A stretch of DNA of 32,000 bases from Acholeplasma laidlawii PG-8A. GTDB lineage: Bacteria > Bacillota_I > Bacilli_A > Acholeplasmatales > Acholeplasmataceae. Numbering within the stretch: position 1 is the first letter of the stretch; each line of letters starts with the position of its first letter. Of this stretch, positions 14,218-29,614 are shown piece by piece. Where the stretch lies: assembly GCF_000018785.1 (NCBI RefSeq), contig NC_010163.1, positions 120,001-152,000 of the forward strand, in the 5' to 3' direction. A model generated the notes under the pieces. That model saw nothing but the letters and a program-made list of their open reading frames with translations, was not told the DNA's origin and searched no databases. A program made the position numbers and the translations under genes.

Positions 14218-14637
14218 ATGGCAATCAAGAAAAAAGAACAACAACCACAAAACAAACTACTTGAAATACTATCCACAGAATATAAAGGTGAATCTTTAAT
14301 TCTTGGTATATTAGCAACCATTACAGCAGGTTTAGCTATCATGATTATTGGTAACGTTCAAGGATTTCATATCCCTGAGAGTTTCCCGGTATTAGGTGGT
14401 TCACCAAATGACATGATCTTTGCGTGGACAGTACTTGTTATTGCATTACTTGGTCTAGCACTTGTTATTTATCCATTTTTCTTACCAGCATTCCCGGAAT
14501 TAAGAAAAGTGAGTTGGGCAGGATGGCTAGAGTTCTTAGATAATGCTGCACGTGTTATTATCTTCGTACTTATCGTTACAGGATTTGTATCAGGTGTAGA
14601 TATTATTATCTTAAGATTACTAGAAGGATTAATATAA
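14218..14637 (+). CDS. secE: preprotein translocase subunit SecE
   Basis: Lies between rpmG and nusG. ELRKVSW motif followed by a C-terminal TM helix. AGGAG 14204-14208 sits 9 nt before ATG 14218 (the ORF track starts at TTG 14209). Confidence 0.85.
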   Translation: MAIKKKEQQPQNKLLEILSTEYKGESLILGILATITAGLAIMIIGNVQGFHIPESFPVLGGSPNDMIFAWTVLVIALLGLALVIYPFFLPAFPELRKVSWAGWLEFLDNAARVIIFVLIVTGFVSGVDIIILRLLEGLI

Positions 14638-15185
14638 TGGCAATTAGAACGCCTAAAAGACGTTGGTATGTCATTCAAACTTATTCCGGATATGAAAAAG
14701 CTGTAAAAGAAGACTTAGCCAGACGTGTAGATTCTATGGGTATGCAAGATTATATTTACCAAATTATCGTACCTGAAGAAACATATATTGAAAAGAATAA
14801 AGACGGAAAAGATAAAGAAAAGGTTCGCCAAATTTATCCAGGTTACGTTTTTGTTGAAATGTTAGTTACAGATGATTCATGGTTCGTTGTTAGAAATACG
14901 CCAAGAGTTACAGGTTTCTTAGGTTCATCTGGTGGTGGTACAAAACCAGTTCCACTATTAGAAGAAGAAATTAGACCAATTCTCTTAAAAGCAAACGTTA
15001 TTTCTAAACCTAACTATGAATACTTACTTGGTAAAGAAGTTCAAATCATTTCAGGTGCATTTGAAGGCCAAATTGGTAGAGTATCTTATGTAGATGCTGA
15101 CCAAGAGAAGATGATGGTAGATATCGATGTATTTGGTAGAGCTACTCCAACGGAAATCGACTTTACTCAATTTAAAGAAATCTAA
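14637..15185 (+). CDS. nusG: transcription termination/antitermination factor NusG
   Basis: NGN domain RWYVIQTYSGYEKAVKEDL and KOW motif GKEVQIISGAFEGQIGRV. TAATG overlap with secE. Confidence 0.96.
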   Translation: MAIRTPKRRWYVIQTYSGYEKAVKEDLARRVDSMGMQDYIYQIIVPEETYIEKNKDGKDKEKVRQIYPGYVFVEMLVTDDSWFVVRNTPRVTGFLGSSGGGTKPVPLLEEEIRPILLKANVISKPNYEYLLGKEVQIISGAFEGQIGRVSYVDADQEKMMVDIDVFGRATPTEIDFTQFKEI

Positions 15186-15191
15186 AATATG

Positions 15192-15217
15192 AGACATCCA
15201 TTTGGATGTCTTTTTTT
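15192..15217 (+). terminator. rho-independent terminator after nusG
   Basis: GACATCCA / TGGATGTC stem followed by TTTTTTT. Confidence 0.88.
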
Positions 15218-15264
15218 AGTGTTTATAGACTTATATTTAGATGAAACAAATTTTACAAATATGG

Positions 15265-15311
15265 ATAATCATATGATTATACTTAATTTATACTTAGTTA
15301 TTTGATATAAT
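15265..15311 (+). promoter_or_regulatory. 16-bp perfect palindrome plus extended -10 promoter upstream of the kinase-like gene
   Basis: ATAATCATATGATTAT at 15265-15280. TGaTATAAT at 15303-15311. Confidence 0.45.
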
Positions 15312-15328
15312 CAAAGCGTAGGAAAGAA

Positions 15329-16147
15329 ATGGTGGTAATACATATGAAGAAATACTTAATTGCAGGCCTGGTCATAGAATTTGATTATCGTTATGATCAA
15401 TATTTCAAAAATAACATCGAAAACTATATATATGAAGGTAGTAGAGAAGTCGATCATACAATCACTGTGAAATATGCTCTAGAACTTCAAAAACCAACAT
15501 CTAAGCTTCACAGAATCTTTTCAAAAAGTGTTTCTGGTTTAAAAGCATATATGAACTATGATGAAAACTATAGAAACATTGAAATTTGGATTGATGAAGA
15601 TACATTTACAGATGCTGCGACAGCAGAATACGTTTATACTGGTATGATCTTTTTAGAATTAGCTCAACGCCATGGTCTACTACCACTACACGGTTCAGCA
15701 ATTAACTATAAAGGGGATGTGATCTTATTTGCTGCGCCAAGTGGCACAGGTAAATCAACACATGCCAGAATGTGGAAGCACCTGTTTAAAGATGATGTAT
15801 CATGGGTAAATGATGATAAGCCGTTACTTGATGTTACAAGTGAAGGTATCTTTGTTTATGGTGCACCATTTAGTGGACAGTACTCTTCTAATACTAATGA
15901 TAAAAAACCACTTAAAGCTATTGTATTTTTACAACAAGGTATTACAGATAATGTTCAAAAATTAAATGAAAAAGAAGCATTAAAACACCTAATGACCAAT
16001 ACATTAAGACCAACTGAAGAAGCACTTTGGGATCAAGCTTTAAATCATTTTGAACAAATTATTAAGGAAATTCCAATTTACTTACTGGATGCTAGTTTAT
16101 CTACATCCGCAGTGAAGTCTATTAAAAAGGCGATTTATAATGAATAA
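15329..16147 (+). CDS. HPr kinase/phosphorylase-like P-loop protein (RiPP/lasso-type Ser kinase-like)
   Basis: LHGSAINYKGDVILFAAPSGTGKST matches the HprK core pattern HG..v...G.gvl..G.SG.GKS. 272 aa. Alternative ATG at 15344. The 3' end overlaps the next gene by 8 nt. Confidence 0.6.
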   Translation: MVVIHMKKYLIAGLVIEFDYRYDQYFKNNIENYIYEGSREVDHTITVKYALELQKPTSKLHRIFSKSVSGLKAYMNYDENYRNIEIWIDEDTFTDAATAEYVYTGMIFLELAQRHGLLPLHGSAINYKGDVILFAAPSGTGKSTHARMWKHLFKDDVSWVNDDKPLLDVTSEGIFVYGAPFSGQYSSNTNDKKPLKAIVFLQQGITDNVQKLNEKEALKHLMTNTLRPTEEALWDQALNHFEQIIKEIPIYLLDASLSTSAVKSIKKAIYNE

Positions 16148-17117
16148 ATATTATTCACAACAAAACCAAATCATTAAAAAGACAATGTTACTGTTTGTAA
16201 CATTGTTTTTAACTGTTATAATGGTATCTTGTAAACCTAAACAAGATACTGGGGCTATTGAACTGATTAATCAAGCATATGAGGTCTTAGCACTAGAGTT
16301 TCAAGAAGGGGATACGATAGACAGTGTAACTGGTGACTTTAGATTACCGTTATTTGTTAAAGAATTCCCTGATGTAGCCCTTTTGTGGTCCTCAGGTACT
16401 GAAACTATCATTAAGCCACAAGGACTGTTTGCAGTGATTAATAGACCTCAAGAAGATACTAGTGTTGACCTAACTGCTACCTTAAGTTACAAAAAAGAAG
16501 CAAGAGATAAAATATTTAGCATCAATGTATCAGGCTACACAGACTATGAGTTTACTGGTTACTACGAAAGTTTAAGTGGACTACTCATGGATGAGTTCAC
16601 AGTCGAACTCTCATCTATGATTAAAACAAAGGGTCGTGCCACAGGTACTACTGCACAAGTTAGACAAATTGATAACTATGAAGGTCAAAACTATAATATC
16701 TATACTGGATTTGAAGCATATGGTAATAGAGAACACGTTTGGCCACAGTCTCACTTAGGTGTTATAAAAGATGATCTGCACAATCTACGTGCTGCAAATT
16801 CACAAGTAAATTCTACCAGAGGTAATAAGTTCTTTGTAGATAATCCATTGGGTGGGTCTTGGAAAGTTATTGGTAACGGATTTTATCCGGGTGAAGATCA
16901 TATTGGTGATGTAGCTAGGATTATCTTATACATCTATATTAGGTATGAGCTTAATATTCAACTGGTTGGACAACTTGATTTATTCTTGATGTGGCATGAG
17001 ATGGACCCAGTAAGTCCATTTGAAATATCTAGAAATAATAAGATCTATGCAATACAAAACAATAGAAACCCATTTATTGATTATCCAGATCTTGTAGATA
17101 TCATGTTTAATAATTGA
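16140..17117 (+). CDS. lipoprotein with Ig-like module and C-terminal Endonuclease I (Bsn/EndA-like) nuclease domain
   Basis: Lipobox IMVSC. C-terminal motifs NREHVWPQS, DLHNLRAANSQVNSTRGN, GDVARIILYI and WHEMDPVSPFEISRNNKIYAIQNNRNPFIDYP. Confidence 0.85.
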   Translation: MNKYYSQQNQIIKKTMLLFVTLFLTVIMVSCKPKQDTGAIELINQAYEVLALEFQEGDTIDSVTGDFRLPLFVKEFPDVALLWSSGTETIIKPQGLFAVINRPQEDTSVDLTATLSYKKEARDKIFSINVSGYTDYEFTGYYESLSGLLMDEFTVELSSMIKTKGRATGTTAQVRQIDNYEGQNYNIYTGFEAYGNREHVWPQSHLGVIKDDLHNLRAANSQVNSTRGNKFFVDNPLGGSWKVIGNGFYPGEDHIGDVARIILYIYIRYELNIQLVGQLDLFLMWHEMDPVSPFEISRNNKIYAIQNNRNPFIDYPDLVDIMFNN

Positions 17118-17148
17118 AAAATATGACCGTTTATAGGTCATATTTTTA
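17117..17148 (+). terminator. rho-independent terminator
   Basis: AAAATATGACC / GGTCATATTTT stem, 7-nt loop, T tail. Confidence 0.85.
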
Positions 17149-17292
17149 TATATATGTAACCGTTATTATAAAATTAGTATAAAGATGCATATATTACTTG
17201 TAATTTGAGTTTAAATTATGTATATTGATATGTTACGCGAAAATTAAAGGAGAACATTCACACTATGAAAAACTTGTAACAATATTACAATC

Positions 17293-20200
17293 ATGCTTAT
17301 TTCAATATTTATAGTTTCATGTGAATCCATTGATACACTGCCGACTGAATTGCTTGAAAAAGTAGAAATTAATTTATCAGAAGGGGATAGACTAGATCAT
17401 ATTACTTCTGATTTCTCATTACCTTCTGGCTTAGAAGATAATAAAGAAATTACAATTACTTGGACATCAAGTGATCCTGTTGTTATCTTAATAGAAAATA
17501 ACATGGGAAAAGTTACTAGACAAAGTGCTGATAAATCAGTTACTTTAACTGCTAAAGTAACTTTAGGTAGTAATTCAAAAGATATTACCTTTGATTTAAT
17601 CGTTATTAAATTAGAAGATGTTATTACACCAGATACAACTAAACCAGTTATTACGGGTGCTAAAGACATCAACTATACAATTGGTGATGCTGAACCATCT
17701 TACTTAGATGGTGTGTCAGCAACCGATGATGTAGATGGAGAAGTTGATGTTACTGTAGATACTACTAATGTTAACTTAAGCGTTAAAGGCGTTTATAACA
17801 TTATTTATACTGCAATGGATAATGCAGGTAATAAAGAAGAAGTTACTGTAATAGTAATTGTAACAAGTAATGAAGTACCTGTAGTTGGTGAAACTGTTAC
17901 ATTTAAATACACTGGTACTACTACTGGTAATATGACAACTGGAAATAATGCAGTCTCAGTTGGACTAGTAGAGTCAGTATTTAATGTCACAACAGACTCT
18001 GTAGGAGAGTTTAATAATATTATTGGTTTAAATAAAGATGGATCTGTAAGATTATATGCAGATAGAACAACTGGTAATGGTAATACATTAACAGTTGCAA
18101 CATTAGGTGAACAAAAAATCAATGCAATTACAATTGTATTTGGTGTAGGTTCAAACACTGTTGAAGGTGAGACAAGTGGTTTATTAAAACTTGGTTCACA
18201 AGAAATCACATTAGGCTTAGCTGATTTATCAAGTACTACTAAAACATATACAGATTTAGATATTAAAGAATTTAGCTTAAAGAATACAACAACAGGTACT
18301 AAATCAGGTCAAATCTGGATTGTATCTATTGATATTACTTATGGTGGCTCAGGTTCAGTTACACCAGGTGAAGATGCTGTTGCACCTGTAATTAGCGGTG
18401 CTAAAGACATTACTTATGTAATTGGTCAAGATGCTCCAAACTACTTAGCTGGTGTATCTGCACTAGATGCAGTTGACGGTGTTGTTCAAGTATCAGTGGA
18501 TGCTAGTGCTGTAAACTTAGAAGTTTCTGGTACATATGATGTTATCTACACAGCTACTGACTTAAAAGGTAATGTTGCTGAAGTTGTTGTACAAATTACT
18601 GTGACTGATGGTGAAGAAGTAGTTGATCAAGAAACATTAGTTCATCACTTCCAATTTACAGGTGATTTACAACATGGTTATTCTGATAGTGCTGAAGCAT
18701 CTGTATTAAAGGATACTGTTACAAATAAAAATGTAGATATTTTAAAGAAACGTGCAAATACAACTGGTAATGAATTAATCTTATCTGGTGCATCCACATC
18801 ACAAACAACTGCTTGGATTGTGTTTAACTTCCAAACAAAGATTAATAAAATCACATTTAACTTAAAAACTTGGAGTGATCTAGATTTAGCGGCAACAACT
18901 GTTGCTAAGCTACAAACTAAAGTTGGTAGTAATTGGGTTGACATCTTAGATTTATTACCACACTTAACAGTGGATGGTAAATTAATTGAAGTCACTGATG
19001 TTGAACTAGATAACTTACGTATCTTTGTAGATGCATCTGTAGGTACTCAAAATACAGCAAGAATTAAAATCTCTGATTTAAAAATGTTTAATCTAAAACC
19101 TGCTAAACCAGCAGAACAATTAAATGTAGAATTAGACCGTAATCAATTATCAATTCCAACAACATTTATTGAAAATGGAGTAGCAACACTTTCAAAAGTT
19201 GGTGCTAAAGGAAGTACAATTGTTTGGTCATATACAAGTGCAACAAACACAAACAACAATTTAATTAATCTTTCAACTGGTGCAGTAACTGTACCAAGTG
19301 AAGGTCAAGTAGAGGTAAGCTTAACAGCAACACTTACAAATGGTGAATTTTCTTTAACAAAACAATTTATTGTTAAATTAGGTGAGGGTAACCCAACAAC
19401 TATTTTATCTGTTAGAGGTGAAACAAACCAAAGTTTTGTTAAAACAGTTGGTGTTGTTACATCTGTTTATACTAAAGGAAATGAACTGTTTGTCTTCATG
19501 GAAGACCAAACAGCAGCGATTTTAGTTAGAATACCAACTTCACTTAATGCAACACTAAAAGCTGGTGATGAAATTGAAGTTAGAGGTACAAAACTAACTG
19601 AAAACTCAAATATTTATATTGGAAATATTCGTGGTGTTAAAAAGTTAGCCACTAAAGAAGCATCTCCACTAATTATTACTGCTGACAAGATAGCAAACAA
19701 TCCATCCAAATTAGTATCTATCTTTGGTCTAATGTCAACTAAATATACAAATACTCAAACAAACTATGTGTTACATACAAATCAAGGTAGTTTTACAATC
19801 TATGTACCACAAGATTTAAACCAAACTGAAAAATTAGCAATTCAAAACAAATTAGCAAACCTAGACCCAGGTCTAAGAGTAAGTGTCATTGCACCAGTTT
19901 ACAAAGAAGGATCAAATAACTATATATTTGTAACAAGTGCTAGTGAGTTAATAGTAGATAACACAGTTGACTTTAACAACGTCTCTGCAATTATTTTAGA
20001 TAACATTGTACTACCTACAATTGGTACATCAACATCAAGTAATCTAGACTTAACAGTAGCAGGAGAATTATTATTTGGTGCTACTATTAACTGGGTATCT
20101 TCAAACCCTGCTGTATTATCAAATACTGGTGTAATTAACCAAGGAGATAATGATGTTGTAGTTACATTAACATATACTATCTTATTTGATAGTGAAGTTG

Positions 20201-20817
20201 TTGAAACTAAATCATTTAATATTACAGTTAATTCAATTTCAAGTTTTACAGGTTACTATTCAGTATTAAATGGTTTATCTGGTAATGCTTTTAAATCAGC
20301 TTTAACAAATATGATTAAGACTATGGGTTCACAATCAGGTTCTACAAGCCAAGTACAAGCAATTGATAATTACAATGGAAAAAACTATAATATCTATACT
20401 GGTTTTGGTGCATATGGTAACCGTGAACACGTTGTACCAGCATCTAAACTAAGAGCAGTTGGTGCTAAAGAAGATGACTTACATAACTTAAGAGCTGCAG
20501 TAGTATCAGTCAACTCAACACGTTCTAATTATCCATTTACAAATGCTGCAACAGGTGCTAATTGGAAGTTGATTAATGGTGCATTCTACCCAGGTGAAGA
20601 ACACGTAGGGGATGTAGCGCGTATTGTATTATATATCACATTACGTAACAACATTAAGATTACTGAAGTTGGTTCATACCAAATGTTTTTAACATGGCAT
20701 GAACAAGATCCAGTAAGTGATTTTGAGATATCTAGAAACGAAAAAATATTTGGAATTCAAAAGAGCCGTAATCCATTTATTGATCATCCAGAATTAGTAA
20801 ATGTTTTATTTAGCTAA
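17293..20817 (+). CDS. large multidomain surface nuclease: Ig-like modules, two DUF5011/HYR-like modules, OB-fold-like region, C-terminal Endonuclease I domain
   Basis: 1174-aa ORF. Paralogous modules at 17629-17865 and 18367-18612. C-terminal NREHVVPAS, DLHNLRAAVVSVNSTRSN, GDVARIVLYI and RNPFIDHPE. The SD-preceded start appears to be ATG 17265, which is in another frame (see findings). Confidence 0.85.
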   Translation: MLISIFIVSCESIDTLPTELLEKVEINLSEGDRLDHITSDFSLPSGLEDNKEITITWTSSDPVVILIENNMGKVTRQSADKSVTLTAKVTLGSNSKDITFDLIVIKLEDVITPDTTKPVITGAKDINYTIGDAEPSYLDGVSATDDVDGEVDVTVDTTNVNLSVKGVYNIIYTAMDNAGNKEEVTVIVIVTSNEVPVVGETVTFKYTGTTTGNMTTGNNAVSVGLVESVFNVTTDSVGEFNNIIGLNKDGSVRLYADRTTGNGNTLTVATLGEQKINAITIVFGVGSNTVEGETSGLLKLGSQEITLGLADLSSTTKTYTDLDIKEFSLKNTTTGTKSGQIWIVSIDITYGGSGSVTPGEDAVAPVISGAKDITYVIGQDAPNYLAGVSALDAVDGVVQVSVDASAVNLEVSGTYDVIYTATDLKGNVAEVVVQITVTDGEEVVDQETLVHHFQFTGDLQHGYSDSAEASVLKDTVTNKNVDILKKRANTTGNELILSGASTSQTTAWIVFNFQTKINKITFNLKTWSDLDLAATTVAKLQTKVGSNWVDILDLLPHLTVDGKLIEVTDVELDNLRIFVDASVGTQNTARIKISDLKMFNLKPAKPAEQLNVELDRNQLSIPTTFIENGVATLSKVGAKGSTIVWSYTSATNTNNNLINLSTGAVTVPSEGQVEVSLTATLTNGEFSLTKQFIVKLGEGNPTTILSVRGETNQSFVKTVGVVTSVYTKGNELFVFMEDQTAAILVRIPTSLNATLKAGDEIEVRGTKLTENSNIYIGNIRGVKKLATKEASPLIITADKIANNPSKLVSIFGLMSTKYTNTQTNYVLHTNQGSFTIYVPQDLNQTEKLAIQNKLANLDPGLRVSVIAPVYKEGSNNYIFVTSASELIVDNTVDFNNVSAIILDNIVLPTIGTSTSSNLDLTVAGELLFGATINWVSSNPAVLSNTGVINQGDNDVVVTLTYTILFDSEVVETKSFNITVNSISSFTGYYSVLNGLSGNAFKSALTNMIKTMGSQSGSTSQVQAIDNYNGKNYNIYTGFGAYGNREHVVPASKLRAVGAKEDDLHNLRAAVVSVNSTRSNYPFTNAATGANWKLINGAFYPGEEHVGDVARIVLYITLRNNIKITEVGSYQMFLTWHEQDPVSDFEISRNEKIFGIQKSRNPFIDHPELVNVLFS

Positions 20818-20885
20818 TCACTTTGACTAATAAGTCTTAGAAAGTAAGCTTAGACTCATCAATTATAAAAGGCAATAAACTTAAT

Positions 20886-20939
20886 AAGATGTTAGTAGTG
20901 ATTTATATAATCTATAAAAATACTACTAACATCTTTTTT
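20886..20939 (+). terminator. rho-independent terminator (long-loop hairpin)
   Basis: Perfect 14-bp stem AAGATGTTAGTAGT / ACTACTAACATCTT followed by TTTT. Confidence 0.75.
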
Positions 20940-21078
20940 CATAAAGGGTTAGTATTTCAAATTTAGGATATAATATATAATAACTTAATCACAAGGATGT
21001 AGATTTAATAAAAATTATGTCTTAGAAAAGTCTAAAAGAAAAATTAATGGTAAAATAGGGTAAACTAGGGAGAAGTTT

Positions 21079-22227
21079 ATGAGAAAAATAAGTATTGGAT
21101 TCATGATTCTATTTTTTACCTTTATATTGGTATCTTGTAGTGCTAGTCCAAGCGATATGGAGTTTAGACTACAGCAACCTACGAATATAAAAGTAGAAAA
21201 AAATATTTTAACATTTAGTGAGGTAGAGGGAGCAAGTTCATATATTTTAAGTATTAATGGAGAAAATATTAATATATATGAAACAACATATACCTTTACA
21301 GAAGATGGGTCATACAAGGTGCGTATACAAGCGCTTAGCGGTGTAGAAGACTTTGTAGATTCTTTGTTTACGGATGCTTATGAGTTTAAGGTTAGATTCT
21401 TACAATATCCAGATGATATTGGAGTTTTAAATAACCAAGTATTCTTTACACGCGATGAAGATGCTGACAGCTATGATGTAGAAATTAATGGCACAGTATA
21501 CAATTCAAAAGAAGATTTACCACCATACTTAGAACCGGGCACCTATGAAATACGCGTTAAGGCAAGAAGTGATATGTATAATGAATCTGAATTTTCTCCA
21601 ATAACGAAAGTTATTGTAGATAAATCAGATAGAGTAGTTACAAAGCATAACTACCAGTATAGTATTAACTCTAAATTTGAGTTACCACTATACACCTATA
21701 AAACAATAGGTTTAAACTATATTGAACTATTTGAAGCAAAAAAAGAAGATGATCATTTAGTAGAAGAAAATGCATTAAGTGAACGTATAGACTATTACGC
21801 GTTTAATCAAACTATCTACTTTAGCACAAGTTACATGAATTTTTTAACTAAGAATCTAAAAGATAATCAGCAATTAAAACAAGAAGTTTTAACATTTGTG
21901 ATTCACACGAATTTAGGAGATCATGAAATTACACTTGAGATTAATAGATTAGATACACCTTATGCTTATAACGGTCAAATTCAAAGTACTAACTTTAAAG
22001 ATGACGTAGAATTCTTATTTGAAACATTTGATTATGTATTTATCAGTGTAGAAGGTTATGATATTAAGGATATGCATTTTAAATTTGAAAATGGTGAATT
22101 AATCCTTTATGCAGACTACATACTTGATACTTATGGATTTAAAAGAAGTGCTGAAAAATTAGAATTTACTGTGATCTTTCAAAAAGATGGTATCAACTAT
22201 AAATACCCAATATATATATTAAAATAG
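21079..22227 (+). CDS. lipoprotein with tandem Fn3-like modules (paralog of 27443..28033)
   Basis: Lipobox ILVSC. AGGGAGAAG SD. N- and C-terminal regions align with the 196-aa lipoprotein (PTNIKVEKNILTFSEVEGASSY vs PTNLKFEIATLTFDEVEHATSY; TNFKDDVEF vs TNFKDDIKL). Confidence 0.8.
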   Translation: MRKISIGFMILFFTFILVSCSASPSDMEFRLQQPTNIKVEKNILTFSEVEGASSYILSINGENINIYETTYTFTEDGSYKVRIQALSGVEDFVDSLFTDAYEFKVRFLQYPDDIGVLNNQVFFTRDEDADSYDVEINGTVYNSKEDLPPYLEPGTYEIRVKARSDMYNESEFSPITKVIVDKSDRVVTKHNYQYSINSKFELPLYTYKTIGLNYIELFEAKKEDDHLVEENALSERIDYYAFNQTIYFSTSYMNFLTKNLKDNQQLKQEVLTFVIHTNLGDHEITLEINRLDTPYAYNGQIQSTNFKDDVEFLFETFDYVFISVEGYDIKDMHFKFENGELILYADYILDTYGFKRSAEKLEFTVIFQKDGINYKYPIYILK

Positions 22228-22236
22228 GTGGATAAA

Positions 22237-22503
22237 ATGAAATTAAAAAAAGATTATATTTTAAAAACTGTTGCTGGTGAACATATTGTAGTACCTATAG
22301 GTGTTGAGGCAACTAAATTTCATGGCATGATTACATTAAATGAAACAGGTAAGTTTTTATTTGAAAACTTAAAAGAAGAAACAACAGAAGAAATACTTAT
22401 CATGAAACTACTTGAAAGTTATGATGTGACACCTTCTCGTGCTAAAACAGATGTTGATAAGTTTCTTGGGTTACTAAAGAAACACAATTTATTTGATAAT
22501 TAA
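22237..22503 (+). CDS. PqqD-family protein (RiPP recognition element-like peptide chaperone)
   Basis: ILKTVAGEHIVVPIG....FHGMITLNETGKFLFENL...EEILIMKLLESYDV..SRAKTDVDKFLGLLKKHNLF fits the PqqD/RRE pattern. AGGTGG SD before ATG 22237 (the ORF track starts at GTG 22228, directly after the upstream stop). Confidence 0.75.
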   Translation: MKLKKDYILKTVAGEHIVVPIGVEATKFHGMITLNETGKFLFENLKEETTEEILIMKLLESYDVTPSRAKTDVDKFLGLLKKHNLFDN

Positions 22504-22522
22504 ACATAGTATTTTATTATTT

Positions 22523-22552
22523 ACAGGTGACATTTTAAATGTCACCTGTTTT
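22523..22552 (+). terminator. rho-independent terminator after the PqqD-like gene
   Basis: Perfect 11-bp stem ACAGGTGACAT / ATGTCACCTGT, 5-nt loop, T-rich tail. Confidence 0.85.
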
Positions 22553-22755
22553 ATTAAGTAATAAGAAAATATAAGTAATAAACGCTATTATATTGGAAAC
22601 TGGGAGCGTTTTACTAAATTAGTTGATTTATTTTAATATATATAATACAATGTAGTGTTACTTGTAAATATTGATTCATGCAAAGGGGCACTTACTTTAA
22701 AATGTACAATAAAGTTATTAGTCTAATGGGTAGCATTTTATCAAATTTAAATATA

Positions 22756-22788
22756 AGAGACTGACCATTTTTTTGGTCGGTCTCTTTT
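22756..22788 (+). terminator. second, orphan rho-independent terminator
   Basis: AGAGACTGACC / GGTCGGTCTCT stem (one G-U pair), then TTT. No annotated gene lies upstream of it. Confidence 0.75.
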
Positions 22789-22852
22789 AATGATTTAAGT
22801 GAGATTATGGTATCTAAATGATTAGTAAATTGAATGTAAACATTAAGTAAAG

Positions 22853-22876
22853 TCTTAGGATCTAAGGTCTTAGATC
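22853..22876. promoter_or_regulatory. operator-like nested palindrome upstream of the 47-aa ORF
   Basis: CTTAG-GAT-CTAAG-GT-CTTAG-ATC. GATCTAAG / CTTAGATC is a perfect 8-bp inverted repeat with a 2-nt spacer. -10-like TATAGT/TATACT lie at 22886-22896. Confidence 0.4.
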
Positions 22877-22947
22877 ATGAATTTGTATAGTATACTAATG
22901 AAGGTATCTTATAAGTAAATAAAAATAAATAAAGGGAGAGAAAAGAC

Positions 22948-23091
22948 ATGAAGAAAGAAACACTTAAAAAGAAGACTTATGATAGTCCAACTATAGAGGT
23001 TACTGAGTTTTCAATGAAGGATTCGATTGCTACAAGCGGTGTTGGAGCTGCGTTTTTTGAGCAAGTATGGGGCGGCGGAGGAAGTGTATAA
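22948..23091 (+). CDS. 47-aa RiPP precursor-like peptide (lasso-type leader and core features)
   Basis: Not in the ORF track (too short). GGGAGAG SD 7 nt upstream. Encodes MKKETLKKKTYDSPTIEVTEFSMKDSIATSGVGAAFFEQVWGGGGSV. The stop overlaps the next ATG (TAATG). Confidence 0.6.
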   Translation: MKKETLKKKTYDSPTIEVTEFSMKDSIATSGVGAAFFEQVWGGGGSV

Positions 23092-25586
23092 TGAAAAAAA
23101 TTAGTATTTTCTTTTTAGCATTAGTTGGATTAGTACTTATTGGTATGCACGCTGCACCTAAAGCTGCAGCTGCGGGGTTTGGCAATACTTATTCGTTTGA
23201 TGTTACTATTGTACATGGTGAGAGTAATCTTGATGTACATAAACCAGATCTAGGTAGTTTTAATCATGGTAATAAAGTATCTATTGATATTACCTCTTTA
23301 AATGGTTTAGAGGCAGTTAATTCTAAACAATTTGCGTTCTTTGTTGTTAATGGACAAATAATAGAAAATAATTTAGAACAATTTATGGTTACATCAAATA
23401 GTAAAATTACGGCTGTCTTCACAAATGGTGAAGAAAAGGCTGCAGTTTTTATTGATTCTAACGGTGAGTTTTTATCAGTTGATTATGTTGATGGGGAAAC
23501 AGCTCCAGTCGCACCTAGTGTCGCTAACTTATCAAAACCAGGGTTAACACCTGTTGCGTTTGGGGTTCTAGATCCAATCTCGGAACATACAGTATATGTC
23601 GTGGATTATGTACTTACTAATCCAGAAGCAACAGTCATGATTAACGGCGAAGCTCATCCATATAACTCAGTTGTTACATTAACTGCTGAAGGTCCATTTA
23701 CACACTGGGAAGAAGATGGGGTTGTTGTATCGTATAATCCTAATTATAAATTCTCAGCGTTACGAGATAGAATAATTACTCAAAAGTCAGATGGTGGAAC
23801 ACCTTCAACAATTATTACACTGTCAGATGATTTGGGTTTAAGAAGTAGTGAAGGTAAATCTAGTTTCTTAGGACAGTTTGAATTAACCGCTGGTCAAGAG
23901 TTTGTCGAATCTGGTATCTTGGCAAGTGATGTATTTGTTAATAACTTAACAATTGACACACCAAATGTACAAGTTATCTCATCAGACGCTATTCAACCAA
24001 ACACTAATGAGTTTTTAAGAACTGTTGATACAGATGCATTCGCACTTATTAGAGGATATGTTAAAACTAATACGGGTGTTTACTACTCTGATAATTTTAC
24101 ACCAAAAACAAATACAGGCTTGATGATATATGAAGTTTATGGTGGCGGTGGTAATAGTGGAGCACTTTATACGAATGATTATGCTGTTCTTTATAATGGA
24201 ACTTCAGTTGACATTGATTTATCAAATTATACGCTACAATATGCAAGTGCTACTGGCCAGTTTACCAATAAAGATGAACTAAGTGGTACGATTTTAGCAG
24301 GTAAATACTTTGTAGTAAAATTAGGCGGTGGATCTACAGAATCTGATCTTCCAAGAGTTGACTTTACTGGTACTTTAAACCTATCTGGAACAAGTGGTAA
24401 GATTGCACTTGTTCTAGGTACGACTGAAGTGTCAACTAATGATTTATATAATGTAGTAGACCTTGTAGGTTTTGGTTCAGCAAATAAATATGAAGGTAAT
24501 GCAGCGGTCGGTGTTTTAAGCAACTCAACATCGGCTAAAAGAAGTAGTTTTATTGACTCGAATAATAACGGTGAAGATTTTACTGTTGGAACACCAGACC
24601 TGACGTATACATTAGATGGAGAATTTTATACGGTAGCATTTAATACAAATGGTGGAAATACTATATATGATGTAGAAGTTTATGAAAATAATAAAGTATC
24701 ACAACCTACAAATCCGACTAAACCAGGATATGTATTTGAAAATTGGTACACTTCAGCCGACTTTACCACTGTGTTTGATTTCAATACCTTAATAAATATG
24801 GATACCACTATTTATGCTAACTGGTTGGTTGAACGAACAGTGACATTTGTTGATGGAGAAACAACATTGAGTACATTAAAAGTAGCTAATGGGTTAAAAG
24901 CAACAAGGCCATCAAATCCTATTAAGTCAGGATATGCATTTGTTGATTGGTATGAGGATTCTGAATTTACTATTTTATTTGATTTTAATACAGAAATCAC
25001 AGCCGATAAAACGGTTTATGCTAGATTTGATTTAGATGATACTCCTGTAGTCGATACTATTGTGTCGGTGTTAAAACCCACAGATTCAGGATATCCGACA
25101 TCATATGGTAATATGACCTGGACTAGAGATACAGTTACATTCAGTGGTCAACAATTGACTAGGAATGGGAATGGAAGTTCAACGCCTTATGTAATACAAG
25201 GTAACAGTAATAGAAATCCTAGGTCAAATATAACTTCAAGTCAATTGCCAGGAAACTTACAGTTTGTAAGAATAACATTGGCTAGTTCAGGTACATTTGC
25301 CGGGGCATCAGCAAAAATGTATGTTGAAGTTTCTAGTACATCTGATTTTTTAGTAAGTACGAAATATGGTATAGGATCAGGCTATACATCAAACGCTAAT
25401 ATCACATTAACAGGCCACGCGAATGGAACTACCATAACAAATGCACTCACTTTAGCTGACCCCACACCAACAACTCCAAGTATTGTCTTTAATATTTCAT
25501 CTGATAATGCACGTTTTGTAAGGATTGTTTGGGAAAGTGGAGCATCTTATTACAGTTCAATTGAATTTGAATATAATTCAAAGTAA
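23091..25586 (+). CDS. secreted multidomain protein: signal peptide, lamin-tail domain (LTD), two Listeria-Bacteroides (Flg_new) repeats; probable N-terminal part of a frameshifted nuclease gene
   Basis: MKKISIFFLALVGLVLIG signal peptide with GGAGGAAG SD 6 nt upstream (the ORF-track start at 23067 is unlikely). LTD pattern LMIYEVYGGGGNSGALYTNDYAVLYNGTSVDIDLSNYTLQYASATG. Two PGYVFENWY / SGYAFVDWY repeats. Confidence 0.8.
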   Translation: MKKISIFFLALVGLVLIGMHAAPKAAAAGFGNTYSFDVTIVHGESNLDVHKPDLGSFNHGNKVSIDITSLNGLEAVNSKQFAFFVVNGQIIENNLEQFMVTSNSKITAVFTNGEEKAAVFIDSNGEFLSVDYVDGETAPVAPSVANLSKPGLTPVAFGVLDPISEHTVYVVDYVLTNPEATVMINGEAHPYNSVVTLTAEGPFTHWEEDGVVVSYNPNYKFSALRDRIITQKSDGGTPSTIITLSDDLGLRSSEGKSSFLGQFELTAGQEFVESGILASDVFVNNLTIDTPNVQVISSDAIQPNTNEFLRTVDTDAFALIRGYVKTNTGVYYSDNFTPKTNTGLMIYEVYGGGGNSGALYTNDYAVLYNGTSVDIDLSNYTLQYASATGQFTNKDELSGTILAGKYFVVKLGGGSTESDLPRVDFTGTLNLSGTSGKIALVLGTTEVSTNDLYNVVDLVGFGSANKYEGNAAVGVLSNSTSAKRSSFIDSNNNGEDFTVGTPDLTYTLDGEFYTVAFNTNGGNTIYDVEVYENNKVSQPTNPTKPGYVFENWYTSADFTTVFDFNTLINMDTTIYANWLVERTVTFVDGETTLSTLKVANGLKATRPSNPIKSGYAFVDWYEDSEFTILFDFNTEITADKTVYARFDLDDTPVVDTIVSVLKPTDSGYPTSYGNMTWTRDTVTFSGQQLTRNGNGSSTPYVIQGNSNRNPRSNITSSQLPGNLQFVRITLASSGTFAGASAKMYVEVSSTSDFLVSTKYGIGSGYTSNANITLTGHANGTTITNALTLADPTPTTPSIVFNISSDNARFVRIVWESGASYYSSIEFEYNSK

Positions 25587-26584
25587 ATAACCCTACTGAA
25601 GACAACGAATCGCCAATAATTACATTAGAACCGGGCGTAAGTCCGGTTCGACTCTCAGTAGGGGATTCATGGACATTACCTACTGCAACTGCAGTAGATA
25701 ATGTTGAAGGTGAAATTTCATTTATAGATGTAGATACTACACTTATCAATCAATTCTATAATAGTTCTACAAGTCAATATATATTCACAACAACAGGTAC
25801 CTATGAAGTGGAATTCACTGCAGCAGATGAATCCGGAAATATAGCTACCAAAGTTATAATAATTATTGTGAGTGATGGTGTAGATAGTTATACAGGCTAT
25901 TATGAGTCTATTAATGGACTTAGTGGCCAAGCACTAGTAGATGAATTGTATACTGTCCTAAATAATACAGGACAATATACTACAACAACATATGGCGCAG
26001 CTAGATATCATCTAGAACAAACCGATGCATGGATAGGATTTAATACAAACTACTTGTATTTAATTTATACAGATACATTAAAGGGATCTGTAAGTAGTGG
26101 ATATCCTGATGAAGGATATGCACTAGCAAAATGGGATGAAGGTGCTACTTGGAATAGAGAACACGTTTGGGCTAAATCTTTATTTGGTACAGGTAACTAC
26201 GAACCGGGAGCTTCAACAAGAGGTATTGATGCAGACTTACATAACTTAAGAGCTGCCGACACAACTGTAAACTCCACAAGAAGCAACAACCTATTTATTA
26301 ACCAAGTATACAATGCAGGTGGTTTTGGTAACTACAATTCAAAATGGTATCCAGGAGATCACCATAGAGGGGATGTTGCTAGAATCTTATTCTACATGGA
26401 TATTAGATGGGGTGGTTTAACCAACTTATCTAACATAGGTGATTTAGCAACACTGCTCCAGTGGCATGAACTAGATCCAGTGGATGATTTTGAAATCAAT
26501 AGAAATAATCTAATATATGGATTCCAAAACAATAGAAATCCATTTATTGATCATCCAGAACTTGTCGATAAAATTTGGGCATAA
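25577..26584 (+). CDS. DUF5011/HYR-like module plus Endonuclease I (Bsn-like) domain; continuation of 23091..25586 in the -1 frame
   Basis: This frame is open from 25577, well upstream of the ORF-track GTG at 25808, and encodes NNPTEDNESPIITLEPGVSPV...TYEVEFTAADESGN. It then has WNREHVWAKS, DLHNLRAADTTVNSTRSN, GDVARILFYM and NRNPFIDHPE. Confidence 0.8.
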   Translation, partial: FKVNNPTEDNESPIITLEPGVSPVRLSVGDSWTLPTATAVDNVEGEISFIDVDTTLINQFYNSSTSQYIFTTTGTYEVEFTAADESGNIATKVIIIIVSDGVDSYTGYYESINGLSGQALVDELYTVLNNTGQYTTTTYGAARYHLEQTDAWIGFNTNYLYLIYTDTLKGSVSSGYPDEGYALAKWDEGATWNREHVWAKSLFGTGNYEPGASTRGIDADLHNLRAADTTVNSTRSNNLFINQVYNAGGFGNYNSKWYPGDHHRGDVARILFYMDIRWGGLTNLSNIGDLATLLQWHELDPVDDFEINRNNLIYGFQNNRNPFIDHPELVDKIWA

Positions 26585-26606
26585 TAAATCAATAATCAAT
26601 CATAAT

Positions 26607-26645
26607 AAGCAGCAATCACATATATGAATGTGTATTGCTGCTTTT
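26607..26645 (+). terminator. rho-independent terminator
   Basis: AAGCAGCAAT...ATTGCTGCTT stem with an inner CACA/TGTG extension, then TTT. Confidence 0.8.
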
Positions 26646-26842
26646 AATGAGATTATGTAATCAAAATAGAATCAGATATAAATTCATAACGTTTTTATTA
26701 AACATAACTAGATTTATGTAGAGCTCAATACAGATAAGCATTATATGAATTAGCTTAAATATGTTACAATATGATGTTAGGTTTATAAAAATATATAGAG
26801 ATAGATTAAATCTTTGTATAATAAAAATAGGGGATTTGTAAA

Positions 26843-27415
26843 ATGAAAAAAATAATGATAGTCATAGGTTTGTGCTTTCTATTCATATTAGTAGGTTGTA
26901 CTACAAATAATAATCGTGACATAAGTTATAGTTATGTGTTCATTGGTGAAGATGAAAGAACTTTCCAAACAACACTTACAACAAAGAATGAATTAGATTC
27001 AATCAAACAAAAAATCAATGTGATAGAGAATAATTTAAAAGAGATCACACTTGATGAACCAGATTATAATCAATCAACAGTAAGTACATTTGGTTTTAGT
27101 TATAATGAGTATCGTGGTGGAAGATACTATTATTACACATTTGCCTTATACTATAAGATTGTTGATTCAAAACTAGAGTACACTATTCATAAAAATAAAC
27201 AAGAGATGAGAGTTCGTGTACATAGTAAAGTACTCATGGAATATATATACTCAAGTAAAGAAGAAGGTACTTTAGTTAACTATACATTTGGCTTGTATTA
27301 TAATGAAACTCCAAATGGTTTACAAACTCAAAAATATATACTAAAAATAAGTGAATCTGATGATAACTTGGTATATAAATTTGGTGGTTTTACTTTAACA
27401 AATAGTAATTATTAA
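26843..27415 (+). CDS. lipoprotein of unknown function
   Basis: Signal peptide plus lipobox ILVGC. AGGGGA SD. No recognisable domain. Confidence 0.75.
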   Translation: MKKIMIVIGLCFLFILVGCTTNNNRDISYSYVFIGEDERTFQTTLTTKNELDSIKQKINVIENNLKEITLDEPDYNQSTVSTFGFSYNEYRGGRYYYYTFALYYKIVDSKLEYTIHKNKQEMRVRVHSKVLMEYIYSSKEEGTLVNYTFGLYYNETPNGLQTQKYILKISESDDNLVYKFGGFTLTNSNY

Positions 27416-27442
27416 TAAGATTAAAAACAAGGATGGAATAAT

Positions 27443-28033
27443 ATGATGAAAAAGCTTAGCTTAGTCTTAAGTGTTGTAATGATTCTTATATTAATTGGGT
27501 GTGTAGATGATAAACCAACTACAAGATTGGAAACACCAACAAACCTAAAATTTGAAATTGCAACGCTTACGTTTGATGAAGTAGAGCATGCTACAAGCTA
27601 CATTATTATTGCAGAAGGACTTAATGCAATCGTAAATACGAATAGCTACACCTTCCCACATGAAGGTGTATATAAGGTTCGTGTTGTTGCAAGAGCTAAA
27701 GGCTACCTTGATTCACTGTACTCCACGGAACTTGAGGTGGTTGTAAGTTTCACAGATCAAAAACCATACATGATATCAAGTAAAGATATAACAACTAACT
27801 TTAAGGATGACATAAAACTTTCCTTTGCTAGCTTAGGTTATACGTTTAAAAGTCTTAATGGATATGCTATTACTTCAAGTGACTATACATATGTAAATGA
27901 TGTACTCACAATCAAGGCTAGTTTTCTAAAAACAGCATTTGAAAAAGAAAGTGAAAGAACATCTTTAATATTTTCATATACATTTGAAAAAGACGATCAA
28001 ACACACTTAGGTTTTATTACAATTAAAAAATAA
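27443..28033 (+). CDS. Fn3-like lipoprotein, short paralog of 21079..22227
   Basis: Lipobox ILIGC. Both ends are similar to the 382-aa lipoprotein. Confidence 0.8.
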   Translation: MMKKLSLVLSVVMILILIGCVDDKPTTRLETPTNLKFEIATLTFDEVEHATSYIIIAEGLNAIVNTNSYTFPHEGVYKVRVVARAKGYLDSLYSTELEVVVSFTDQKPYMISSKDITTNFKDDIKLSFASLGYTFKSLNGYAITSSDYTYVNDVLTIKASFLKTAFEKESERTSLIFSYTFEKDDQTHLGFITIKK

Positions 28034-28041
28034 AATACATT

Positions 28042-28074
28042 AAAATTCCTATCAAATTTGATAGGAATTTTATT
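28042..28074 (+). terminator. rho-independent terminator
   Basis: AAAATTCCTATCAA / TTGATAGGAATTTT palindrome followed by T-rich sequence. Confidence 0.85.
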
Positions 28075-28091
28075 ATATGGATGTTAATAGA

Positions 28092-28100
28092 TGTTATAAT
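28092..28100 (+). promoter_or_regulatory. extended -10 promoter element for the SPFH gene
   Basis: TGtTATAAT at 28092-28100. The -35 region is weak. Confidence 0.4.
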
Positions 28101-28202
28101 ATTAAGTGAACAGTTATCCAAAAACATATGAAATGTGGACCACCACATTTAAATAGAGCTATAGATAAATGTATCTTAAAAAATAGAGGGAGATTTTTTA
28201 AC

Positions 28203-29225
28203 ATGGCATATGTTATAAGTAGTTTTATCTTATTTGTAGTATTTCTTGCAGGAGCAATTGGTATCATTGCAAACTACAAACATAAATATGGAAGTAAAGT
28301 TTATTTTTCCATACTGGCTGCACCGTTAGCATTTTTAATACTCTTATTTGGTTCATTTACAACCGTAGGTGCAAATGAAGTAGGTATTATATTTGATGAA
28401 TTAAATGGTGGAGTTTTAGAAGAGACCTATGGTCAAGGGTTACATGCTAAATCACCATTTAGACATGTAACAACTATATCTACTACAAATAGAACATCTT
28501 ATATAGAAGTGTATTCTCAAACTGAAGATAGTATTTTTGCAAAGTTTGAGATTACTGTAATTTATAATATAGAAACAAATAATGCAGGGCTATTTTATAG
28601 AACAACAGGTAGTGTAGATATTTCTTCACAACAGTTGAACTCTATTGTTAAAAAGAACTTACAAAGTATAACTACACAACATAATATATTTGATATTATG
28701 GGTGTGTCATTAGAAGAGGTACGTGCTGCATTTAGAGATGTCTTATCAAATGATCTAATGAATATCTATCATATAACATTAGTATCAGTTTCTATTGATG
28801 ATGTAGATGCAGGTACTGAAATTGAACAAATCATTCAAGATAAAGCAAAAGCAATTCAACAAATTGAAATCGCACAACAAGAAAAAGCAAGACAAGACGT
28901 TATCAATGAAACAAATCGTATTAAAGCTGAAATTGATGCAGAGATTGCTTTAATTAAAGCACAATCTGATTTTGTAGTAGCTGAAAAACAAGCAGAAGCT
29001 CAAGCTGTATTAAATGCAGCAGCAGTAAATGCAATTCAAACAATGTATGACCTACAGTTTGAAACGCCTGCAGAAAAACTAGAGTTTGAGACAAATGGTA
29101 CAGGAGGATATCTAACAATTCAAGAGGTTTCTACAATTGTTATTAAACAACTTTACTATGATGTATGGGATGGCAAATTACCTACTGTTATTACAGACGG
29201 ATCAGGCATTATTATTCAACCATAA
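28203..29225 (+). CDS. SPFH/band-7 (prohibitin/HflK-like) membrane protein
   Basis: N-terminal TM helix, SPFH core (VGANEVGIIFDELNGGV...), and an Ala/Gln/Glu-rich coiled-coil tail. GAGGGAG SD before ATG 28203. The ORF-track start at 28128 has no SD. Confidence 0.8.
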   Translation: MAYVISSFILFVVFLAGAIGIIANYKHKYGSKVYFSILAAPLAFLILLFGSFTTVGANEVGIIFDELNGGVLEETYGQGLHAKSPFRHVTTISTTNRTSYIEVYSQTEDSIFAKFEITVIYNIETNNAGLFYRTTGSVDISSQQLNSIVKKNLQSITTQHNIFDIMGVSLEEVRAAFRDVLSNDLMNIYHITLVSVSIDDVDAGTEIEQIIQDKAKAIQQIEIAQQEKARQDVINETNRIKAEIDAEIALIKAQSDFVVAEKQAEAQAVLNAAAVNAIQTMYDLQFETPAEKLEFETNGTGGYLTIQEVSTIVIKQLYYDVWDGKLPTVITDGSGIIIQP

Positions 29226-29246
29226 TTAAATATATATATAAATCAT

Positions 29247-29283
29247 AATAACCCAATCACTTTCATGTGATTGGGTTATTTCT
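29247..29283 (+). terminator. rho-independent terminator after the SPFH gene
   Basis: Perfect 14-bp stem AATAACCCAATCAC / GTGATTGGGTTATT, 6-nt loop. Confidence 0.75.
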
Positions 29284-29323
29284 ATATGGATAACTACCCA
29301 TCACCACATAATTTATAAATTAT

Positions 29324-29344
29324 ATCGGGAAATTTTTTTCCGAT
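29324..29344. repeat. 21-bp palindromic repeat copy 1
   Basis: ATCGGGAAATTTTTTTCCGAT. Confidence 0.9.
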
Positions 29345-29441
29345 ATAAAAGAAGTTAAATATGATATAGAATTAAAATAATGGATTATTTGACACGTTAT
29401 TAGGCATTTTTAAGTGTTTATGTACTGCAAGGGTTATCTAA

Positions 29442-29462
29442 ATCGGGAATATTATTTCCGAC
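29442..29462. repeat. 21-bp palindromic repeat copy 2
   Basis: ATCGGGAATATTATTTCCGAC. Confidence 0.9.
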
Positions 29463-29473
29463 TAGTCTTAATA

Positions 29474-29494
29474 ATCGGGAAATTATTACCCGAT
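29474..29494. repeat. 21-bp palindromic repeat copy 3
   Basis: ATCGGGAAATTATTACCCGAT. Confidence 0.9.
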
Positions 29495-29587
29495 TAAGGG
29501 GAACCATTAAATTAATATTGGCGTAACTCTTACATATTACCACGATCTATAAAATTGATGCACCTTACCACAAATCTTAATAATCGC

Positions 29588-29608: not shown

Positions 29609-29614
29609 ATTGCA

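Follow-up and report, generated by a model that had tools for sequence, protein, structure and literature searches.

Which pathway is served by a set of peptide-modifying genes that comprises a kinase, a PqqD-type RiPP (peptide made by the ribosome and modified after its translation) recognition element (RRE) and a precursor peptide, and that is embedded among genes for surface nucleases? The question is raised by a 32,000-nucleotide (nt) stretch of DNA from Acholeplasma laidlawii PG-8A (contig NC_010163.1, positions 120,001 to 152,000), which we analysed as a whole and term the window; coordinates below are counted from its first nucleotide. The window represents a low-GC (about 31%) Acholeplasma laidlawii-type chromosome, and its kinase gene (15329-16147), RRE gene (22237-22503) and precursor gene (22948-23091), all on the forward strand, reside together with nuclease genes in an insertion of 16 kb that is bordered by nusG (14637-15185) and rplK (starting at 31490). 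A previous sequence-only reading had placed the three parts at just these positions and had listed as possible explanations a decayed lasso peptide cluster, a split cluster and a different function of peptide, kinase and RRE that is tied to nucleases. The last of these comes closest: the gene set matches that of the linear polyphosphorylated peptides (LPPs) described by Popov et al. (Nat Commun 2026; PMC13381572), the link to nucleases is conserved, and we consider it probable that the three genes constitute a reduced cluster of the LPP type.

LPP clusters, 126 of which have been published, encode a core set of kinase, RRE, signal-peptidase-I-like protease, MsbA-like pump and nucleoside triphosphate (NTP)-transferase without any cyclase. 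They occur in capsule loci of Bacilli, and in 67 of the 126 loci the kinase is labelled TIGR04249. The precursors combine a YxxPxVLxHQxIxFET/xxS leader (the slash marks cleavage) with variable C-termini. In the characterized system, that of Paenibacillus, LppK adds several phosphates to Ser3 of the core and LppS cleaves after Thr-1, albeit only together with LppB; deletion of lppS leaves nothing but uncleaved, phosphorylated full-length precursor. Popov et al. describe LPPs as peptides of unknown biological role and unsolved final structure (PMC13381572).

In the window, the smallest part of the set is a 47-amino acid (aa) open reading frame (ORF; 22948-23091) that we regard as an LppA-like precursor. 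It is not a chance ORF, because it is preceded by a ribosome-binding site (AAGGGAGAG), has ten allelic relatives in A. laidlawii-type strains and belongs to a leader family defined by a hidden Markov model (HMM; E 1.7e-9) that finds 24 related loci apart from the window; the sequence-only reading was thus right in calling it. All ten alleles are intact, and those of close relatives carry the label A. laidlawii at NCBI. The leader shared by the small ORFs reads Y-x-x-P-x-Φ-[ED]-Φ-Φ-E-[FL]-x-x-x-[DNE]-[SVI]-[IL]-[AT]-x-S. In the window allele it spans M1-S26 with Y11-x-x-P14-x-I16, and the variable core ends in GVGAAFFEQVWGGGGSV. Among the ten alleles the leader is almost invariant up to ...SMKDSIATS, after which the cores diverge strongly (GVGAAFFEQVWGGGGSV, GTQGTSLWEQMWGGQ, GLVGASLFEEVWPL and others). 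Cleavage is predicted at KDS/IATS and Ser30 is invariant, while the position of Thr29 is occupied by E, V or A in sister species. Phosphorylation of a C-terminal serine in the manner of paeninodin was considered and rejected since Ser46 of the window allele is missing from most alleles. Kinase-driven head-to-Glu cyclisation met the same fate: with T29 and G31...E38 the window allele fits the lasso pattern, but in other alleles the glutamate lies 6-12 residues from the junction.

The RRE (22237-22503, +) is a discrete, LppB-like protein of 88 aa that belongs to the PqqD family (PF05402, E 4.7e-14) and also matches the NCBIfam models for lasso-type PqqD proteins at 2.5e-7. A profile built from 38 orthologues retrieves TfuB1 (5.5e-9), TbiB1 (1e-8), PbaB1 (1.6e-7) and LppB (9X8Z; 4.4e-6), while single-sequence PDB searches with RRE and peptide as queries were uninformative. 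The ratio of nonsynonymous to synonymous substitution rates (dN/dS) is 0.00-0.03 at a dS of about 0.25 for the RRE and 0.03 at a dS of 0.10 for the kinase, in each case between two strains that lack the peptidase discussed below.

The kinase gene (15329-16147, +) encodes a 272-aa LppK-like protein of the ScmC family with a predicted HprK/PEPCK (HPr kinase/phosphoenolpyruvate carboxykinase) fold. It matches the ScmC model TIGR04249 at E 4.8e-11 (42.5 bits compared with a cut-off of 125 bits), shows weak matches to the models for HprK-related kinases A and B and for PEPCK around the P-loop, and is marked PF27840 (ScmC) by an external source. The AlphaFold model, built from 90 homologues, reaches a pLDDT of 94.7 and in a structure search resembles ATP-dependent PEPCK (E 1e-7 to 1e-8) and, at E 1e-5 to 1e-6, HPr kinase/phosphatase. 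The Walker-A residues G141, K142 and T144 as well as K164 are invariant in 90 sequences, and D162 is invariant in an alignment of 13 sequences and nearly so in the 90. The earlier family assignments of the 272-aa and 88-aa proteins are therefore upheld. The kinase family is large, with 15,742 representatives at 50% identity (E<=0.001), most of them uninspected. Fusions of kinase and PqqD occur among the homologues. The kinase domain is further found in longer or fused proteins of 362-366 aa (P0099, P0107, P0111, P0113, P0195, P0266) and 614-623 aa (P0155, P0216); in proteins of about 620 aa it makes up the C-terminal half and the N-terminal 330 residues may represent a radical S-adenosylmethionine (SAM) enzyme.

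Neither a cyclase nor a leader protease is encoded in the window, as had been claimed before. We found no SGGxDS motif in six frames and no cyclase-type ORF, no B2 protease and no other peptidase in the window, and tblastn at E<=10 gave no trace there of a signal-peptidase-like protease, a PF14907 transferase, a radical-SAM enzyme or an ABC exporter. A genome scan with the kinase alignment yielded more than 590 matches, the best 80 of which, mostly from gut Clostridia, were inspected as loci; in total about 90 related loci were inspected, and the frameshift-ridden assembly L092 was left out. In these about 90 loci, seed-family BLAST and Pfam searches on selected neighbours revealed no Asn-synthetase-type cyclase or B2 protease. 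Clostridial neighbours of 550 aa were considered as cyclases and rejected, as they are SLH proteins; other neighbours are Wzz, Flg_new, FIVAR, GH64 glucanase, Rce1-like and M3 peptidase proteins.

Most of the related loci do feature adjacent genes for kinase, RRE and an S24-like peptidase, and about 40% contain an ABC exporter gene and 16 a PF14907 gene. The S24-like gene is located directly 3' of pqqD in A. equirhinis, A. oculi, A. granularum, loci L005 and L007 and many Clostridia. The encoded proteins match SipW and, with E 1e-8 to 1e-11, TIGR02228 (archaeal-type signal peptidase I), and their Ser33, His70 and Asp85 are invariant. The second-best NCBIfam match of the exporter is MsbA (TIGR02203, E 2e-70), that of the radical-SAM enzyme from Izemoplasmatales is ScmE (E about 1e-19), and the NTP-transferase matches PF14907 at E about 1e-42. 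In A. equirhinis, genes for kinase, PqqD and a 138-aa S24-like protein are followed by those for an aBig_2 protein, a membrane protein, a 40-aa peptide, a Flg_new protein and Endonuclease I. A metagenome-assembled genome from Izemoplasmatales encodes a radical-SAM enzyme, kinase, PqqD, a 133-aa S24-like protein, PF14907 and a 53-aa peptide ahead of an LTD protein and an LTD/Lactamase_B/Endonuclease I protein. Locus L007 contains an ABC exporter gene on the opposite strand, then genes for kinase, PqqD, S24-like protein and a 43-aa peptide, and finally those for an LTD protein, Ig-Endonuclease I, an Fn3-like lipoprotein and PF14907. In A. oculi and A. granularum nuclease genes split the kinase gene from pqqD, just as they do in the window. 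A Clostridial sub-type (L033, L041, L057, L059, L063, L071, L077) shows the order PqqD, peptidase, ABC pump, secreted protein of about 360 aa, precursor, kinase, SLH protein and Wzz; its precursors read ENIAA(L/V)xPxTxY after the leader, such that Thr and Tyr are conserved instead of Ser.

The window shares with the published LPP clusters a discrete PqqD-type RRE, a TIGR04249-labelled HprK-like kinase and the absence of a cyclase. Its precursor likewise combines a conserved leader with Tyr-x-x-Pro-x-Φ, a variable C-terminus and a serine by the cleavage site. Measured from Ser26, Tyr11 occupies position -16 and Pro14 position -13, a spacing identical to that in LppA, and the predicted site is preceded by a hydroxyl residue at -1 and an acidic one at -2 (K-D-S/I-A-T-S compared with F-E-T/A-Q-S in LppA). 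Clostridial and some Izemoplasma relatives are found in polysaccharide loci (Wzz, Wzy_C), also reminiscent of LPP clusters. Unlike the published clusters, those studied here stem from Acholeplasmatales, Izemoplasmatales, Peloplasma and gut Clostridia, some of them add an ScmE-like radical-SAM gene, and the precursor gene heads an LTD/Endonuclease I operon. A term search of PMC13381572 and its supplements returned no Acholeplasmatales, Izemoplasmatales, Peloplasma or Clostridia and no "nuclease"; the nuclease-operon context of the peptide is absent from that paper. The family is much larger than the 126 published loci, as the 15,742 kinase representatives indicate, and common in gut Clostridia.

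By analogy with the Paenibacillus system, the RRE would bind the Y-x-x-P-x-I strand of the precursor leader and present the precursor to the HprK/PEPCK-fold kinase, which with ATP would phosphorylate the invariant Ser30, probably repeatedly; a macrolactam ring would not be formed. In sister species, the soluble archaeal-type signal-peptidase-I-like protease would then take off the leader, the PF14907 NTP-transferase may decorate the phosphate and the MsbA-like ABC pump would export the product. In A. laidlawii, cleavage and export, if they occur, would have to rely on unlinked functions. At least the recognition and phosphorylation step appears to be still in use because kinase, RRE and precursor have been kept under selection. 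The A. laidlawii-type locus thereby presents itself as a natural minimal version of an LPP cluster from which, in several strains, peptidase, exporter and transferase have apparently been lost, and such a kinase-RRE-precursor system in a cultivable organism offers a handle on the role of LPPs, the more so as the cores are short, pherotype-like and easy to synthesize.

Several observations weigh against this assignment. The distal leader reads xxxDSIAxS and lacks the HQxIxF segment of the published HQxIxFETxxS, and the invariant serine resides at +4 and not at +3 from the junction predicted by spacing. The RRE profile scores TfuB1, TbiB1 and PbaB1 above LppB; since it thus favours B1 proteins of lasso clusters, the family may form a sister clade of the published LPP clade, and it is with this proviso, an LPP-type system and possibly a sister clade, that we assign the window genes. 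Of the five LPP enzymes only two are encoded in the window, with no peptidase, pump or transferase, and the product in A. laidlawii may never mature because only uncleaved precursor is left upon deletion of lppS. Finally, allele P0138 contains no Ser, Thr or Tyr past Ser30, and its core would be devoid of a phospho-acceptor if cleavage actually occurred after Ser30.

A clue to function may come from the nuclease genes. Each of the three parts abuts a nuclease or lipoprotein gene, as had been recognized: the kinase gene overlaps the gene for nuclease 1 by 8 nt (16140-16147), the stop codon of an Fn3-like lipoprotein gene precedes the ATG of pqqD by 9 nt, and the precursor stop overlaps the ATG of the LTD gene as TAATG. 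This last overlap is as described earlier; the "LTD-nuclease gene" to which it was ascribed, however, is made up of two ORFs, 23091-25586 and 25577-26584, that are read in different frames. The first encodes a secreted protein with LTD (PF00932, E 2.5e-10) and Listeria-Bacteroides repeat (Flg_new; PF09479, E 1.1e-29) domains, the second Ig-like and Endonuclease I domains in the -1 frame (PF04231, E 1.7e-30), both on the forward strand. A second Fn3-like lipoprotein gene (27443-28033, +), recognized by seed-family BLAST and gene order and with a weak CBM_X2 match, occupies the same post-nuclease position as in related loci. The order precursor, LTD/Flg_new, Ig-Endonuclease I and Fn3-like lipoprotein is found in the window, L002, L007, L011, L013, L014 and L015, and a variant form of it in L005 and L009. 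In the six loci for which genes were called (window, L002, L005, L007, L011 and L095/L096), the distance between precursor and LTD genes ranges from -1 to 14 nt; for L013-L015 gene order alone is kept. Because the precursor gene heads the operon and is translationally coupled, the peptide appears to be made together with extracellular DNA-degrading machinery.

The co-occurrence with Endonuclease I genes in other genomes that the sequence-only reading had raised as a check extends across orders and genomic contexts. Acholeplasmatales, Izemoplasmatales and Peloplasma all possess the precursor-headed unit, which recurs in at least five genomic contexts that are unrelated to one another. It is flanked by nusG and rplK in Acholeplasma, by oxaloacetate-decarboxylase genes in L005 and by others elsewhere, and since the flanking genes differ, the linkage of peptide and nuclease is no chance feature of a single island. 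Clostridial members reside next to SLH, Flg_new or capsule genes without any nuclease. What is constant throughout the family therefore seems to be proximity to secreted or surface/matrix functions, with the nuclease link apparently specific to the wall-less lineages.

How is the nuclease made? Although called from a GTG at 25808, the Ig-Endonuclease I ORF is actually open from 25577, overlaps the LTD stop, begins with a linker and the Ig-like domain and has neither its own start codon nor a signal peptide. The same arrangement is present in seven species and three further strains, which together make up our frameshift set; the ORF lies in the -1 frame in every case, and TAA serves as the upstream stop in all seven species. 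We propose that the nuclease is a candidate for programmed frameshifting, being reached only via a -1 shift at the LTD stop. The putative cassette (25577-25672, +) consists of A_AAG UAA, a 7-nt spacer and a stem CCCUACUGA...UCAGUAGGG around a 9-bp hairpin. Corresponding cassettes are located in L002 (17046-17150), L007 (14083-14196), L011 (13524-13658), L013 (6080-6172), L014 (15306-15446), L015 (16222-16311), L095 (12909-13029) and L096 (13035-13155). Re-pairing in the -1 frame is possible at the last sense codons: A_AAG UAA is found in the window and in L095, the canonical heptamer U_UUA_AAA UAG in L096 and L098, and C_CCG or G_GAG UAA in the remaining species, with the site in L002 not being clear-cut. 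At a distance of 6-7 nt past the shift site, a CCC(C)UAC stretch forms pairs with GUAGGG(G) located about 60 nt downstream and encloses a strong inner hairpin. The minimum free energy z-scores at the shift site range from -4.1 to -4.7 in four of seven sequences, and a covariance model run over 1.36 Mb retrieves the element at these junctions and nowhere else. The glycine codon in the 3' arm is GGG in seven of seven sequences, while GGG accounts for 5-9% of glycine codons in these loci. The outer stem is 87% paired compared with 34-54% in slid controls; still, covariation support for it is weak because there is only one compensatory pair and shuffled sequences reach the observed values.

Bacterial programmed -1 frameshifting of the dnaX type relies on a shifty site, a spacer and a stable 3' stem-loop. 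The candidate shares all three, with A_AAG (U_UUA_AAA in another strain), a spacer of 6-7 nt and a stable 3' stem-loop. It differs in that the shift takes place at a stop codon and adds a whole Ig and nuclease module, and in that several species use G_GAG UAA or C_CCG UAA. A literature search yielded no paper on this LTD-nuclease frameshift. If confirmed, it would represent a new case of bacterial recoding, through which one surface-protein gene gives rise to two products, the strain-variable head alone or a fusion of head and nuclease. The head is indeed variable: inter-strain homology ends at 23171, after the LTD signal peptide, and restarts at 25558 at the shift site, so that the LTD/Flg_new body is best described as a variable cassette on a constant nuclease module. 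In the A. laidlawii-type strains (window, L095, L096) the bodies comprise 831, 930 and 972 aa and are without detectable nucleotide similarity, whereas the cassette flanks are about 90-95% identical between strains.

Among the alternatives to the LPP-type assignment, the one that survives best lays the emphasis on this neighbourhood. It holds that a peptide of Acholeplasmatales and Izemoplasmatales was recruited to the LTD-nuclease operon, either as a strain-specific signal or as a polyanionic partner or inhibitor of the secreted nuclease, and we regard it as possible. The gene order kept in unrelated contexts and the tight precursor-LTD spacing described above speak for it, and the polymorphic core adjoins the strain-variable LTD cassette. 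In pherotypes such as those of ComC/CSP and AgrD, an invariant leader accompanies a mature region that is strongly diversified among strains of one species. The window family resembles them in its invariant leader and diversified core and differs in its modification chemistry and in that no cognate receptor or regulator was identified, a point that speaks against recruitment. LPPs in capsule loci of Bacilli provide another extracellular-matrix theme (PMC13381572), and a polyphosphate chain may be likened to a nucleic acid backbone. On the other hand, the Clostridial members lack a nuclease, a single peptide allele is found alongside LTD cassettes that differ (930 and 972 aa), and conservation of the neighbourhood may mean co-regulation only. 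Wall-less bacteria may use LTD/Endonuclease I proteins for scavenging nucleotides and remodelling extracellular DNA. Combining these lines, we tentatively suggest, without placing great weight on it, that in wall-less Bacilli the phosphopeptide is a working part of an extracellular DNA-degrading apparatus in which the nuclease is joined to its head only by a -1 shift. If so, A. laidlawii would show that kinase, RRE and precursor suffice without leader peptidase or exporter. In any case, the conserved link to secreted LTD/Endonuclease I proteins is a testable lead on LPP function.

It is rather unlikely that the cluster is split, such that another part of the A. laidlawii genome supplies peptidase, exporter and NTP-transferase (or further modifying enzymes) and so completes the pathway. 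Parts of the locus are already spread over 7.7 kb, and purifying or diversifying selection acts on kinase, RRE and precursor although their partners are missing. However, a search with the A. equirhinis peptidase retrieved orthologues in A. granularum and A. oculi and none labelled A. laidlawii, the peptidase gene resides directly behind the RRE gene in all other species, and the same peptidase-less layout is found in three A. laidlawii-type strains; two complete loci besides the window (L096, L097) share it. The site that the peptidase gene occupies in relatives corresponds in the window to the 445-nt spacer between pqqD and precursor gene (22504-22947), in which neither tblastn nor blastn detected a remnant of it. 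The spacer contains a predicted terminator-like hairpin 3' of pqqD (22523-22549, +; 12-bp stem followed by a T-run) that may set the transcription unit of the RRE apart from the precursor operon, and a second hairpin is located at about 22757-22789. Its fold is unremarkable (z -1.9), and the only RNA element suggested for it is a sub-threshold greA-leader match (21.6 bits compared with a cut-off of 60 bits).

Slightly less plausible still is that the locus is a non-functional relic of an LPP cluster heading for loss. Peptidase, transferase and exporter are gone, and decay is evident in other Acholeplasma species: the A. granularum precursor is truncated (MEKKYYEEPQLEVIEFK followed by a stop; L010 10489-10566), cut after the RRE-binding motif, the LTD gene is lost there and a nuclease fragment stands where the LTD operon would be, and A. 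hippikon (L003) has kept only the kinase gene, which adjoins an ABC-F gene. The pqqD-precursor spacer also takes up insertions, as exemplified by L095 (3335-10000), where a Pycsar-like pair (Guanylate_cyc and PycTM) and a gene for a 1460-aa NOV_C protein have been inserted. Against a relic stand the dN/dS values of both kinase and RRE (0.00-0.03, with dS at 0.10-0.26) when peptidase-less strains are compared with one another, the ten intact precursor alleles with their invariant leader, and the strong precursor ribosome-binding site together with translational coupling to the next gene.

A decayed paeninodin-type lasso cluster that has lost cyclase and B2 protease is highly improbable, for although the leader [Y/W]xxPxΦ is common to Firmicute lasso precursors, the pqqD gene product matches lasso-type models and the window allele reads T(-2)-S/G1...E8, the related loci, as far as seed-family BLAST and Pfam searches on selected neighbours show, have a serine signal-peptidase-like protease instead of cyclase and B2, the ring is not kept since alleles place Gly and Glu at distances anywhere from 6 to 12, the leader Tyr is an LPP-type determinant as opposed to the Trp of paeninodins, and a cyclase-less family with the same gene set has already been characterized (PMC13381572).

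Two further systems deserve comparison with the preferred LPP-type assignment. Paeninodin and pseudomycoidin clusters share with the window a B1-type RRE and the class of leader motif, and their HprK-family kinase phosphorylates the precursor prior to processing (PMC6993621). The window differs by the absence of an Asn-synthetase-like cyclase and a transglutaminase-like B2 protease, and its phospho-acceptor would not be the C-terminal serine used for paeninodin. In pseudomycoidin biosynthesis, the PF14907-type transferase PsmN is needed to put a hexose on the phosphate (PMC6993621). The SynChlorMet cassette (TIGR04249-04251, NCBIfam) likewise combines an ScmC-type protein with a pqqD gene, and the Izemoplasmatales relatives carry one ScmE-like radical-SAM enzyme. 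Still, the window contains no radical-SAM/SPASM gene while the cassette contains two, the ScmC score lies below the cut-off, and in the window locus a precursor has been identified.

Further genes of the insertion code for lipoproteins. Nuclease 1 (16140-17117, +) is a lipoprotein with lipobox MVSC that consists of aBig_2 (PF20578, E 2.3e-12) and Endonuclease I (PF04231, E 2.2e-26) domains. It is followed by the gene for a large lipoprotein nuclease of 1174 aa (17265-20817, +) with three aBig_2, an Ig-like and an Endonuclease I domain (PF04231, E 6.8e-29); in the assembly analysed, the 5' end of this gene is disrupted. Compared with GCA_900476025.1, homopolymers at three positions within 30 nt (17256, 17267, 17284) are each shorter by 1 nt, and these deletions destroy the signal peptide, which reads MKKLVTIFTIMLISIFIVSC in other strains. 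They could be an assembly error or reflect real inactivation or phase variation. Over 20.8 kb the window differs from GCA_900476025.1 (LS483439.1) by three 1-nt indels and one single nucleotide polymorphism, and an identical copy of the 272-aa kinase is encoded there. The Fn3-like lipoprotein gene upstream of pqqD (21079-22227, +) belongs to the nuclease module as a conserved member; the protein shows weak fn3, Y_Y_Y and PKD matches, and homologues are encoded behind the nuclease gene in L007, L009 and L013-L015.

An Rfam scan of the whole window returned no element, and a promoter scan was not used since it gave fewer sites in the window than in shuffled sequence. The nusG-rplK interval (15186-31489) appears as an insertion hot spot in Acholeplasma, ranging from two genes in A. 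hippikon to about 16 kb in the window, with the kinase gene first or near the start in all versions seen. In L092 (9467-9766), L093 (9559-9846) and L094 (3462-3749) a small HTH_3/XRE-type gene for 95-99 aa, which does not occur in the window (15186-15328), is located between nusG and the kinase gene, and the A. oculi locus contains an HTH_26 gene; it is possible that the HTH gene near the kinase gene encodes a regulator.

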